Shown piece by piece: positions 6,220-46,946 of a DNA stretch of 51,277 nucleotides (position 1 is its first letter; each line of letters opens with the position of its first letter). This stretch comes from a phage. Under the pieces are notes generated by a model. That model was not told where the DNA came from, made no database searches, and saw only the letters and a list, made by a program, of their open reading frames with translations. A program made the position numbers and the translations under genes. The stretch lies in sequence record NC_105513.1; one strand, given 5' to 3'.

Positions 6220-6759
6220 ATGAAAAAATACGAATTTGAACTTTGGGGCAGCAAATACCATTTTTCCACGAGCAAGCCGATTGTTATCGTTGACCTGGAC
6301 GGAACGTTATCAGACGGAACGCATCGCTTACACCTGCTTCCGACAGAAGATTTGCACCTTACAGAAAGCTGGTCTGAGTTCAATAAGGCGGCTGTTGGCG
6401 ATTCGCCGATTAAGAGCACGGTTGCAGTGGTTAACGGTTTGTGGATGTCAGGATTTGCCATCGTTATCCTGACCGGACGTAGCGATGAAGTGATGGAGGA
6501 CACCTGCAAATGGATTAACGAAAACGGCATCAAGTACGATGCGTTAATCATGCGCCGCAAGGAAGACAACCGCAAAGACACAATCATTAAAGAAGAAGTC
6601 TTGCGCGCTATCGGCCTAGAAAACATCGTGTGCGCTTTTGATGATTCGCCGAACGTGGTTAAGCACTTCCGCAGCCTGGGAATCACAACCTATCAGGTCA
6701 CGGAATACGACAAGCCACATAATCATATCCAATCGCATGGCGTGGAGGAATTGAAATGA
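6220..6759 (+). CDS. HAD-superfamily phosphatase-like protein
   Basis: 179 aa; DxDGT nucleophile motif (IVIVDLDGTLSDG), later ILTGR and FDDSP motifs typical of HAD hydrolases. Confidence 0.6.
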   Translation: MKKYEFELWGSKYHFSTSKPIVIVDLDGTLSDGTHRLHLLPTEDLHLTESWSEFNKAAVGDSPIKSTVAVVNGLWMSGFAIVILTGRSDEVMEDTCKWINENGIKYDALIMRRKEDNRKDTIIKEEVLRAIGLENIVCAFDDSPNVVKHFRSLGITTYQVTEYDKPHNHIQSHGVEELK

Positions 6760-6917
6760 TCTGGTTACTTTTAATCTTTGTCACAAGTTACAATTCCGCC
6801 GCTATTGAATCGCAAGAGTTCCACGGCGAATCAAGATGCCAGGAAGCACGAAAACAAGTTGTTCTCCACATGTCAGATAGTGGGAAAGATGTAACAGCGC
6901 TATGCGTTCGTAAATAG
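6756..6917 (+). CDS. small membrane protein (MIWLL family, 53 aa)
   Basis: ATG overlaps upstream stop; hydrophobic N-terminus MIWLLLIFVTSY; stop TAG embedded in promoter box. Confidence 0.45.
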   Translation: MIWLLLIFVTSYNSAAIESQEFHGESRCQEARKQVVLHMSDSGKDVTALCVRK

Positions 6918-6957
6918 CACTTTTTGCAAAAACACATTATCGGGCTTGCGGTATAGT
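6913..6957 (+). promoter_or_regulatory. box-type promoter (-10 TATAGT 6952..6957)
   Basis: AATAGCACTTTTTGCAAAAAC; 21-bp spacer; conserved leader CCCATCGACAACAAGCGAGGA. Confidence 0.55.
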
Positions 6958-6988
6958 AAGCCCATCGACAACAAGCGAGGATTAAATC

Positions 6989-7253
6989 ATGGTTAATAAA
7001 GTTGAGTTTTTCAAAGCGGTAGACAAGATTGACGGCGCGCCAAGTTTCTTTGCTATCCATTCCATTGACGGCGAAAGACGTTGCATACAACGTGATTAGT
7101 CGAGACGGTATATCAAAACTTAGTGACCTGGTGGGTTATATTGTGGCAAACGGGAAATGTGCATGGCCCGATTCGCCACGAGAGCCGCGCCGCCGCGACA
7201 TGCAAAATCCAGTCCTGCTTTACACGCTGGTAATTGAAGGAGTCAACAAATGA
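6989..7253 (+). pseudogene. frameshifted or two-part ORF (hypothetical protein)
   Basis: ATG at 6989 with conserved leader and RBS GAGGA reads 36 codons to TAG 7097..7099; the +1 frame stays open to 7253 with no ATG of its own. Confidence 0.3.
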
Positions 7254-7435
7254 TTTGGTTACTTGTATTTTTGGTGGTTTTCTTTTATATTTCAGGCTTA
7301 TTCATCTTCCGTGCGCTGGTGAAAACATGCGATTGCACGGATAAAGATCATCCTCTTGTTCTGATGTTCTGGTTTGTGTGGTTTTGGGTTGCGCTTTATC
7401 AGATTGTACGGGATAAAAGCGGATTCAAGTGGTGA
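7250..7435 (+). CDS. small membrane protein (MIWLL family, 61 aa)
   Basis: Starts MIWLLVFLVVFFYISGLFIF; two hydrophobic segments; paralog of 6756..6917. Confidence 0.5.
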   Translation: MIWLLVFLVVFFYISGLFIFRALVKTCDCTDKDHPLVLMFWFVWFWVALYQIVRDKSGFKW

Positions 7436-7629
7436 TTCTTACTATAGCGCATTCACGCAGTGCGCTATGTTGAGATAACAACATGAGATCATGAAGATGC
7501 GAAACTTCGAAAAAATCGTATCCAAAAAGAAGCGATACAGCTACCACGAGCACCAAGAGATGAATCAACGCTATCGCAATAAGCGCCAGCGCAAAGGTAA
7601 ACATTCCGGTAAACATGGAGAAAATCAAT

Positions 7630-8220
7630 ATGAAACGCGACATTATCATTCTTAACGGACCGCCAGGAGTTGGCAAAGATACGCTTGCGGCATACTTAAC
7701 GGGTCATCGTTACGCAGCGGTTAAAGCGTCATTTAAACAGCCTATGTTCGATATTGCATTCTCCATGCTTGGCGTTTACCGATATGACGAGTTCATTGAT
7801 CTGTATAACGACCGTGAGCAGAAAGAAAAGCCTCAAGCAATCTTGCAAGGTAAGTCTCCGCGACAATTCATGATCTGGATTAGCGAAGAAGTCATGAAGC
7901 CAGCTTTTGGCGAGCAATATTTTGGGAATCGCATGGTTGAGCAAGTACACGAGATGTACAGAGATTTAGCTGTTGTAATTAGTGATGGCGGATTCCCTGA
8001 AGAAATCAAGCCGCTCGTTAAGGCAGGCCATGAAGTTCACATTTGCCGACTGCATCGCGAAGGATTCACGTTTGATGGCGATTCACGAAACTATATTGAC
8101 CTGAGCGGATACCATCACCGAGTCAAGCATTACGACTTCACAATGATTGATGGCGAGCCAGAAAAGACTGTTGACGAGATCATCAAAGCGGTGCAGTGGA
8201 AACACACAAAGATTGAATAG
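7630..8220 (+). CDS. P-loop nucleotide kinase-like protein
   Basis: 196 aa; Walker A ILNGPPGVGKDT near N-terminus; RBS GGAG. Confidence 0.6.
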   Translation: MKRDIIILNGPPGVGKDTLAAYLTGHRYAAVKASFKQPMFDIAFSMLGVYRYDEFIDLYNDREQKEKPQAILQGKSPRQFMIWISEEVMKPAFGEQYFGNRMVEQVHEMYRDLAVVISDGGFPEEIKPLVKAGHEVHICRLHREGFTFDGDSRNYIDLSGYHHRVKHYDFTMIDGEPEKTVDEIIKAVQWKHTKIE

Positions 8221-44281: not shown

Positions 44282-44983
44282 ATGAGTAAAGAAACTGAAG
44301 TGACATTTGAACAAATAGAACGAGAAACATTCATTGGCAATGCTCTTGCTACTGGAGGCCATTACCAGGCCGTTAAACCAAATCAATATTATAAAGTCAC
44401 TGGCAACCGCTATAACGGCAGCAATACGCCGGACGTTGTGCGAGATTTGTGGTCTACGCCGTCTGAGCTTGTCGCATGGATGGAAATCGAATACGGTGAT
44501 TATGACATCGACGCGGCGGCAAGCAAAGAAAATGCTGTATGTGAAAAATTCTACAGCAAGGAAACAAATTGCTTAAAGCGTTGGTGGGGTAGTAATAAGC
44601 ATATATGGCTGAATCCGCCGTACAGCAATATAACGCCTTTCGTTAAGAAAGCGATTGAGCAAATGGAGCACAATAACCAGATCGACATTCTGTTACCTTG
44701 CGACACATCGACAGGATGGTTTTATGAGGCACAGCAGAAAGCAGCGGAAATCATCTGGATCACTGGCGAAGTTTACCAGGAGGGCGGAACAGAATATTCC
44801 CGAACAGGACGCCTTGCGTTTACCTCGGCCCTTACAGGTAAACCAGTACAGGGAAACAACAAAGGCAGCGTTATTTTCATCATGCGAGAACTGAAAGAAG
44901 GTGAGAAGCAGAAAACGCGATACGTTAAAATCAGCGACATTTGCCCTTCGGTGGCAGACCGTCGCGCACGGAAACGGAGCTAA
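44282..44983 (+). CDS. dam: DNA N6-adenine methyltransferase (phage Dam-like)
   Basis: 233 aa; YDIDAAAS and NPPY catalytic motifs. Confidence 0.8.
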   Translation: MSKETEVTFEQIERETFIGNALATGGHYQAVKPNQYYKVTGNRYNGSNTPDVVRDLWSTPSELVAWMEIEYGDYDIDAAASKENAVCEKFYSKETNCLKRWWGSNKHIWLNPPYSNITPFVKKAIEQMEHNNQIDILLPCDTSTGWFYEAQQKAAEIIWITGEVYQEGGTEYSRTGRLAFTSALTGKPVQGNNKGSVIFIMRELKEGEKQKTRYVKISDICPSVADRRARKRS

Positions 44984-45732: not shown

Positions 45733-45830
45733 GGATTATTATCATGTGGCGTTTGTTACTTTTGCCCTTACCTGTTATGATGGTGATCTCTATTGTATAT
45801 GTTGTCATAATGAGATAAGGAGAATTTTTG

Positions 45831-46946
45831 ATGAAGCAAATCAAAATCACAGATGAACAATTTATCAATGAGCGCAAGCAGGGAAAGACATATAAGCAGA
45901 TCGCTAGTGAGTATGGCATGAACGTTCGCAGCATTGAGCGACGCGCGGCACGATTAGCAAAGCAGGGTAAAGTTACAACCATCGGATCACCTGGTTTTGG
46001 TGTTACTGGAGAATCAAAGCTAATTGATAAAGATGGCAATGTGGTTATGACATGGATTAAGACAAGCAAAGACCGCGAACAGTTAGAAGCATTAATGCAG
46101 GCCGCTATGGATGCATTTAGCGAAGAAGTTCCGCGACTTGATCCGCAGCCAGAATCACAAAAGGATTATAGCGAGACGTTATCACTGTATCCGATCTTTG
46201 ACATGCACTTGGGCGCAATGGCGCATAAGCATGAATGCGGCGAGAATTGGGATACAGCAACAGCAGAGCGCGTAATGAATAATTTCATTGATTATTCCAT
46301 CCAGTGCGCGCCGGATAGTGAAAAAGCTGTTTTGCTGATTGGTGGTGATATGCTTCACAGCGACGGACTGGAAGCGGTGACACCTGCAAGCGGTCACGTA
46401 TTAGATCAAGATAGTCGATACGCAAAACTTGTTTATGTTGCCATCCGGTCAGTGCGTCGAGCAATCACAAAGCTGTTATCAAAACACAAAAACGTCGAGA
46501 TTCAGATTATTGAAGGAAACCACGACCAAAGCGGCATGATCTGGTTGCGCGCAGCAATGGCGGCAGCGTATGAGAATGAGCCGCGAGTGCATGTTGATGT
46601 GTCTCCGCGAGTGGTTCATCACACACAATATGGCAAAACATTCCTGGCATACCATCATGGGCACACTATCCGCAAGCCTGAAACATTGCTCATGATGTGT
46701 GCGGCAGACTGGCGCGAAGACTTCGGAAATTCAAAAATGATGTATGCTCACGTAGGGCACTGGCATCATCAGACAGTAACTGAAACAAGTCTGGGCATTG
46801 TTGAAGTGCATAGCACTATGGCGGCAAAAGATGCATATGCGGCGCGCGGTGGATGGCGTTCTCGTCGCCGTGCGGCTGTTATTGTTTATGATAAAGAATA
46901 CGGAGAAGTAGGTCGATTTATGCATTATCCAGAAATGGCTGGTTGA
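45831..46946 (+). CDS. calcineurin-like metallophosphoesterase with N-terminal HTH-like extension
   Basis: 372 aa; ordered MPP motifs FDMH, GGDMLHSDG, EGNHD, YHHGH, GHWHH; N-terminal YKQIASEYGMNVRSIERRAARL. Confidence 0.6.
   Translation: MKQIKITDEQFINERKQGKTYKQIASEYGMNVRSIERRAARLAKQGKVTTIGSPGFGVTGESKLIDKDGNVVMTWIKTSKDREQLEALMQAAMDAFSEEVPRLDPQPESQKDYSETLSLYPIFDMHLGAMAHKHECGENWDTATAERVMNNFIDYSIQCAPDSEKAVLLIGGDMLHSDGLEAVTPASGHVLDQDSRYAKLVYVAIRSVRRAITKLLSKHKNVEIQIIEGNHDQSGMIWLRAAMAAAYENEPRVHVDVSPRVVHHTQYGKTFLAYHHGHTIRKPETLLMMCAADWREDFGNSKMMYAHVGHWHHQTVTETSLGIVEVHSTMAAKDAYAARGGWRSRRRAAVIVYDKEYGEVGRFMHYPEMAG

Follow-up and report, generated by a model that had tools for sequence, protein, structure and literature searches.

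A Pnkp-type HAD phosphatase gene is linked to a deoxynucleoside monophosphate kinase gene in T1-like phages, and the two are fused in divergent metagenomic proteins

The 51,277-base stretch of DNA analysed here (sequence record NC_105513.1; hereafter the window) is the complete genome of a T1-like siphovirus (Drexlerviridae, Tempevirinae, Hanrivervirus). Over a tested 3 kb, its identity is 99.9% with Escherichia phage JLBYU09 and 92-94% with pSf-1, egaa, KarlJaspers and others. We studied two of its genes, one for a HAD phosphatase and one for a P-loop kinase, which lie on the same strand with 870 nt and four small open reading frames (ORFs) between them (Table 1). A first-pass annotation of the sequence had noted the HAD nucleophile motif, the N-terminal Walker A, and a spacing of about 0.9 kb filled by a "MIWLL island". 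All of this was confirmed: the motifs read DLDGT and GPPGVGKDT, and two of the four spacer ORFs begin with MIWLL. The annotation had proposed either that the two genes are a split end-healing pair in the manner of the T4 polynucleotide kinase/3'-phosphatase (Pnkp), or that they encode unrelated nucleotide-metabolism enzymes.

Table 1. Coordinates of the features discussed, in positions of the window
Feature	Position	Strand	Remarks
Stand-alone HAD (DxDxT) phosphatase, Pnkp type	6220..6759	+	179 aa; ATG start; no kinase domain
HAD motif I, DLDGT	6292..6306	+	D25 nucleophile and D27 general acid/base, read from the sequence and aligned to T4 Pnkp D165/D167
Small ORF (MIWLLLIF...), first gene of the variable island	6756..6917	+	53 aa; phrog_5579, E 1.4e-9
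Small island ORF	7065..7253	+	62 aa as annotated in JLBYU09; no informative family match
Small hydrophobic ORF (MIWLLVFLV...)	7250..7435	+	61 aa; phrog_9755, E 1.7e-27
Small basic ORF	7491..7655	+	54 aa; overlaps the start of the kinase gene; phrog_8176, E 1.7e-5
Deoxynucleoside monophosphate kinase (DNK), T4 gp1-like	7630..8220	+	196 aa; alternative ATG at 7615 gives 201 aa
Walker A / P-loop, GPPGVGKDT	7657..7683	+	GKDT form also in T4 gp1
Calcineurin-fold "DNA repair exonuclease"	45828..46946	+	phrog_704, E 1.9e-151

Sequence, catalytic residues and fold all identify the HAD protein, which is identical to KarlJaspers bas06_0071, as a phosphatase of the Pnkp type. The hidden Markov model (HMM) assignment that had been suggested for both proteins placed it in Pfam PF25109 (HAD_PNKP; 80 bits, cut-off 27.6) and in phrog_415 (E 7e-66), and placed the kinase in phrog_139. 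The nearest solved relatives of the HAD by sequence were Capnocytophaga Pnkp1 (PDB 4XRP) and T4 Pnkp (PseT; PDB 1LTQ and 5UJ0). In the alignment with T4 Pnkp, all of the catalytic residues were kept (D25=D165, D27=D167, T85=S211, K124=K258 and D141/D142=D277/D278), and R36 and R87, the equivalents of R176 and R213, were likewise kept. Catalytic roles of D165, D167, S211, K258 and D278 in the T4 enzyme have been published (PMC3592404). Hundreds to thousands of homologues were found for both the HAD and the kinase, and the motifs of the two proteins are no chance matches. Since the HAD protein has no kinase domain, "polynucleotide kinase", the name that most of the listed Drexlerviridae records give to this gene, is a misnomer. 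As the label of phrog_415, the same name covers kinase-less HAD phosphatases together with the T5 5'-deoxynucleotidase Dmp.

Motif I of the HAD is followed by an insert of about 14 residues, HRLHLLPTEDLHLTESWSEFN, which is absent from T4 Pnkp. T5 Dmp is a deoxynucleoside-5'-monophosphatase with anti-Kongming activity, whose Pfam family is PF26880. It is also a HAD enzyme of phrog_415 (E 3.6e-57), it has the pattern DLDGT-x5-HR in common with the window HAD, and it carries an equally long insert at the corresponding position. In profile-profile comparisons with hhalign, the HAD family matched the Dmp family over 143 columns (probability 91%, E 1e-6) and T4 Pnkp over the C-terminal 87 columns (probability 96%, E 5e-9). 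The homology to Dmp is remote, at 20% identity: plain HMMER linked the HAD with T4 Pnkp (5e-8) and gave no significant link with Dmp (0.15-0.98; the Dmp-family HMM gave E 0.15 on the window HAD), and the C-terminal half of the window protein resembles Pnkp. By sequence comparison, the T1-type HAD is placed between the Pnkp phosphatases and T5 Dmp. In the AF2 model, the segment after motif I (residues 30-56), where the insert is a candidate cap over the active site, had a pLDDT below 50.

Some close homologues of the HAD (P0121, P0123, P0130, P0147 and P0237; 71-97% identical) bear one or two in-frame C-terminal add-ons, a zinc-ribbon-like CxxxC...CxxC segment of about 27 aa and/or a domain of about 57 aa. 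A terminal motif of the type GVE(E/S)(L/I)K reappears after each module, a pattern that resembles small modules inserted right before the stop codon. The window HAD has neither add-on.

On family membership and on published experiments with close relatives, the kinase is assigned as a deoxynucleoside monophosphate (dNMP) kinase, not a polynucleotide kinase. It matched phrog_139 (dNMP kinase) with E 6.7e-51 and reached the cut-off of no Pfam family. Searches of the PDB with the single sequence and with a profile returned P-loop matches only, and the protein was placed by fold search instead; its AF2 model was confident (pLDDT 92). With a significant profile match and a gp1-like fold, it falls in the dNMP kinase family, together with T5 Dnk, Rao1 R1DNK, the KarlJaspers DNK and T4 gp1. 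The hhalign comparison with T4 gp1 (PDB 1DEK) aligned 73 columns including GKDT, DR and LNGKSP, whereas with T4 Pnkp the P-loop alone aligned. The methionine of MKRD, at 7630, is the start in most kinase homologues.

For comparison across the family, we used the published 1DEK ligand list (PMC10653934); residue equivalences beyond hhalign column 73 were assigned by eye from motif positions. The GKDT sequence is invariant, as are the equivalents of the T4 dNMP-phosphate ligands R68 and R132 (R62 and R78 here) and of D175 and E181 (D119 and E125 here). The DR and LNGKSP-R motifs are common to the window kinase and gp1. The counterpart of K37 seems to be K36, about one helical turn away. The window kinase differs from gp1 in its length (196 vs 241 aa), since gp1 residues ~96-131 are missing, and in having Gly, in the motif DGGF, in place of Arg177. 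In addition, the family has an extra invariant Arg in the DSR lid motif.

Phage dNMP kinases trigger the bacterial Kongming defence, and the trigger needs their kinase activity (Zeng et al., bioRxiv 10.1101/2024.12.20.629578). The KarlJaspers DNK (QXV82329.1), which is 98% identical to the window kinase, was among those tested and triggers Kongming. Rao1 R1DNK is 47% identical, with motifs in common. Its substrates in vitro are dAMP, dGMP, dCMP and dTMP, and the mutation K15A, at the equivalent P-loop lysine, abolishes the trigger (same preprint). The class of the kinase is settled by these experiments. Pseudomonas putida PP_1964, a gp1-like protein with proven thymidylate kinase function that keeps the R177 equivalent, was dropped as experimental support. 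A genome scan for the kinase family returned only 6 bacterial or metagenome-assembled loci, with P. putida not among them, so PP_1964 is not a close relative.

The idea of a split T4 Pnkp is not supported, because the kinase belongs to the wrong P-loop family, because there is no ligase, and because the natural fusions described below run phosphatase then kinase, the reverse of the domain order in T4 Pnkp. No Pnk-type kinase domain was found anywhere in the window, and tRNA genes were likewise absent from it. The first-pass annotation had recognised no ligase near the two genes. This held for the whole window, which was searched by tblastn with five RNA or DNA ligases (E > 0.06 throughout), so that the partner RNA ligase of the T4 system is missing as well. 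The record of KarlJaspers, a phage of the same genus, is 51.5 kb long, and its first 50 kb have no annotated ligase, DNA polymerase or ribonucleotide reductase. Neither a polymerase nor a ribonucleotide reductase is annotated in the phage studied here, which relies on host replication. The annotation had also held that a kinase specific for dNMPs, together with a HAD protein inactive on polynucleotide ends, would tell against an end-healing pair. The kinase half of this applies, in vivo for the 98%-identical orthologue and in vitro for the 47%-identical relative.

We examined the linkage of the two genes in IMG/VR, at the 80 best loci with the kinase. In 70 of them, the kinase was preceded on its own strand by the HAD gene, and the reversed order occurred in none; of the ten others, which have no HAD gene, one was a contig-end artefact. 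Among the 70, the distance from the HAD stop to the kinase was at most 5 nt in 24 loci, 50-110 nt in 9, 484 nt in 2 (one of these contigs is apparently T1 itself) and 684-2073 nt in 35. Start and stop codons of the two genes overlap in several genera; in Klebsiella phage Sushi, the overlap is 4 bp. In Rao1, a HAD that is 58% identical to the window protein (gp57) lies immediately upstream of the DNK (gp58), at a distance of 49 nt. A recent paper likewise reports "PNK" and dNMP kinase genes after an exonuclease gene in many Drexlerviridae and proposes a role in nucleotide supply (PMC13164509, 2026).

The kinase family search covered 1.84 billion representatives and yielded 4,175 members. Two of the 150 best hits, P0257 (403 aa) and P0262 (461 aa), were divergent metagenomic proteins that are single-chain fusions of HAD_PNKP, linker and kinase. 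They are 47% identical to each other and have the linker motif GPELHG in common. P0257 lies inside a phage contig of about 60 kb and is encoded identically on 3 contigs, at least two of which come from different sequencing runs. In Shfl1/SH6-like phages, one tblastn match of the fusion protein spans both genes; a read-through or recently split fusion was rejected there, given four in-frame stops in the 109-nt spacer. Because the order is conserved, overlaps are frequent and natural fusions exist, the HAD and kinase genes are judged to be functionally linked and not unrelated. Neither proposal of the first-pass annotation holds in its original form.

Among relatives, spacer lengths run from -3 to 2073 nt, a spread that identifies the spacer as a hot spot for insertion. 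The 0.87-kb MIWLL island fills this insertion-prone junction in a lineage-specific way; it represents one state of a highly variable site between partner genes and does not separate them in function. The start of its first ORF overlaps the HAD stop codon (ATGA). Both MIWLL-starting ORFs are small and hydrophobic, and they belong to different PHROGs (5579 vs 9755). Between the HAD and kinase genes, a scan for promoters and terminators gave nothing exceeding shuffled expectation.

What the pair does can be stated less firmly. We judge the chances to be about even that the HAD and the kinase form a conserved phosphatase-plus-dNMP-kinase module of T1-like phages, which acts on the deoxynucleotide pool derived from host DNA. 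In T1 and TLS, the host chromosome is degraded and its nucleotides are reused, by enzymes that are unidentified for this step (PMC11447400). The phage would break down the host chromosome into a deoxynucleotide pool, from which the kinase would convert 5'-dNMPs to the diphosphates (dNDPs), and host Ndk would convert these to the triphosphates (dNTPs), steps taken as established for the family. The HAD, predicted to use Pnkp-type aspartyl-phosphate chemistry, would share the pathway of the kinase. In the version that we favour, it would strip 3'-phosphates from 3'-dNMPs, 3',5'-bisphosphates or short DNA fragments, so that the trimmed breakdown products become substrates for the kinase and for nucleases. 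In a less likely variant, it would selectively remove particular 5'-dNMPs. We favour the salvage module because of the fusions and the synteny, the exonuclease neighbour described below, the Dmp-like insert, and the activity of T4 Pnkp phosphatase on a mononucleotide, 3'-TMP, which it hydrolyses (PMC3592404).

Several points weigh against the salvage module. First, function is a prediction from sequence and fold for every member of this HAD subfamily, and by plain sequence and fold the HAD is nearer to the Pnkp phosphatases, which are polynucleotide-end enzymes, than to T5 Dmp. Known E. coli and phage DNases leave mostly 5'-phosphates, which makes the source of 3'-phosphorylated deoxynucleotides hypothetical. 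On the kinase side, the glycine that replaces Arg177 of gp1 is invariant across the family, and deletion of Rao1 dnk had no apparent laboratory fitness cost (bioRxiv 10.1101/2024.12.20.629578). In addition, the linkage is limited to Drexlerviridae-like phages, to which all of the syntenic loci belong, and to one fusion lineage; the loci are not independent, and the synteny count is inflated by shared ancestry. Kinase homologues in Chaseviridae, Autographiviridae, Vequintavirinae and Kuravirus come without this HAD. Finally, among 60 metagenomic loci anchored on the HAD, many of them on short contigs, 55 had a stand-alone HAD gene and 1 had the kinase downstream; the remaining four were 3 T4-type Pnk-HAD fusions and 1 HAD-AAA_33 fusion.

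With respect to these metagenomic loci, the HAD-AAA_33 fusion (L159, 5995-7023) starts with HAD_PNKP and ends with a Pnk-type kinase (AAA_33), which makes it a Pnkp with the domain order of T4 reversed. In 10 long metagenomic loci with a stand-alone HAD gene, the neighbouring genes gave no informative Pfam domain.

Stand-alone 3'-end repair is a serious rival to the salvage module because the closest relatives of the HAD act on nucleic-acid ends, even though we regard it as unlikely. The HAD alone would act as a polynucleotide 3'-phosphatase on nicked RNA or on the DNA of phage or host and so regenerate 3'-OH ends. The repair would be finished by host enzymes, LigA for example, and the adjacent dNMP kinase would serve replication independently or loosely. 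Yeast Tpp1 and plant (Arabidopsis) ZDP, which are eukaryotic DNA-repair proteins, provide the analogy, being Pnkp-type DNA 3'-phosphatases without a kinase; the zinc fingers of ZDP may be compared with the zinc-ribbon-like tail of some HAD homologues, an extension that might bind nucleic acid. The hhalign match to T4 Pnkp, the PF25109 score far over its cut-off and the full set of catalytic residues, including the R176 and R213 equivalents, fit such an enzyme, and in some relatives the kinase adjoins an ATP-dependent DNA ligase and a metallophosphoesterase. Against this, the window has no Pnk-type 5'-kinase, ligase or tRNA gene, and the insert after motif I is common to the mononucleotidase T5 Dmp and not to Pnkp. 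Unrelated substrates would also leave the fusion to a proven dNMP kinase without a ready explanation, and the neighbours in every lineage are replication and nucleotide-metabolism genes, with no RNA-repair genes.

Slightly less probable is a counter-defence role of the Dmp kind, in which the HAD would dephosphorylate 5'-dNMPs such as dAMP, dIMP or m6-dAMP. Neither the phage kinase nor the breakdown of host DNA would then feed Kongming or other defences that sense nucleotides. Such a role would account for the kinase and the phosphatase travelling together, and the common PHROG (E 3.6e-57 for Dmp vs 7e-66 for the HAD) and the 143-column profile match agree with it. Dmp blocks Kongming through depletion of dAMP, and Dmps co-occur with DNKs (bioRxiv 10.1101/2024.12.20.629578). 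Another defence system senses m6-dAMP from host DNA degradation, and in Vequintavirus an NT5C-type HAD lies directly downstream of the kinase. However, Rao1 has a HAD right before its DNK and yet is the Kongming-sensitive model phage; its infection raises dAMP, and rescue needs T5 Dmp in trans (bioRxiv 10.1101/2024.12.20.629578). These data weaken a purely Dmp-like 5'-dAMPase or anti-Kongming role and suggest that the T1-type HAD removes dAMP inefficiently. A caveat to this argument is that Bas26 is Kongming-sensitive despite a functional Dmp (same preprint).

It is improbable that the two genes are independent neighbours, co-inherited in the Drexlerviridae backbone with no shared pathway and with fusions as rare accidents: most metagenomic HADs of this type lack the kinase, most kinase homologues outside Drexlerviridae lack this HAD, and four other ORFs separate the genes in the window, but the order is kept across the whole range of spacer lengths, start and stop codons overlap in several genera, a fusion with the same linker motif is kept in two proteins of only 47% identity, and one of these, P0257, turned up in identical form in at least two separate sequencing runs.

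The genes are already annotated in many phages, and the function of the kinase was published in 2024-25. What seems to be new is the quantified HAD-DNK linkage with its natural fusions, the intermediate place of the HAD between the Pnkp phosphatases and T5 Dmp, and the mixing of stand-alone phosphatases with a 5'-nucleotidase in phrog_415 ("polynucleotide kinase"), a label that obscures the membership of the T5 5'-deoxynucleotidase in the PHROG of the HAD. Among coliphages and Klebsiella phages, few groups are isolated as often as Drexlerviridae. Since the HAD is coupled, and sometimes fused, to a Kongming-trigger kinase, it is an obvious candidate controller of the dNMP pool, which underlies phage replication and host immunity alike. 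Its substrate would reveal how T1-like phages reuse host DNA.

More speculatively, and in our view doubtfully, the HAD-DNK pair and its single-chain fusions may represent a bifunctional nucleotide-processing enzyme that has so far gone unrecognised and that arose independently of T4 Pnkp. Its building blocks may be a Pnkp-type phosphatase and a gp1-type kinase. Such an enzyme may turn 3'-phosphorylated deoxynucleotides or short host-DNA fragments directly into dNDPs. Alternatively, it may edit the dNMP pool (dIMP, m6-dAMP) that is sensed by bacterial nucleotide-sensing defences, and in that case the phosphatase would be a new class of counter-defence partner for the Kongming-triggering kinase.

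The gene context points toward nucleotide and DNA metabolism. In Rao1, the phrog_704 protein gp56 lies directly ahead of the HAD (gp57) and the DNK (gp58), and the arrangement in Sushi is the same; in the locus L088, a phrog_704 family member directly follows the fusion gene. The window protein is 58% identical to Rao1 gp56, and its gene is about 10.5 kb from the HAD-kinase pair, counted across the window ends. It sits right before the lysis cassette, which is the position of the HAD-kinase pair in Webervirus and Rao1 and suggests that the pair was relocated in Hanrivervirus. The window phrog_704 protein had no Pfam match at E <= 0.001; a helix-turn-helix (sigma-70 region 4) match at the N-terminus was seen in the Sushi orthologue only.

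In Vequintavirus, the kinase is followed by the NT5C-type HAD deoxyribonucleotidase and then by ThyA and ribonucleotide reductase. The arrangement was seen in Vequintavirus-like phages at L092 (6606-7199), where the NT5C score exceeds the Pfam cut-off, and at L093 (6584-7198), where it falls just short. Here, a dNMP kinase has been paired independently with a HAD nucleotidase, the NT5C-type 5'(3')-deoxyribonucleotidase. The order in Autographiviridae is exonuclease, endonuclease VII, metallophosphoesterase and kinase. Siphoviruses of about 44 kb without the HAD (L040, 7496-11523) have a 5'-3' exonuclease-like gene, a metallophosphoesterase (phrog_221), the kinase and an ATP-dependent DNA ligase, the start of which abuts the kinase stop in L040. 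In Chaseviridae, the kinase is flanked by a DNA ligase and a dUTPase.

Directly upstream of the kinase homologue lie a DUF7768 protein in Vibrio phage Vc1 (L085, 7657-8013) and a SLOG/YAcAr-family protein in Kuravirus SGF2 (L094, 5588-5980). Elsewhere in the window, positions 44282-44983 and 72-782 encode a Dam-like N6-adenine methyltransferase (Pfam PF05869) and a Dcm-like cytosine methyltransferase, the latter called by orthology with JLBYU09 and KarlJaspers.

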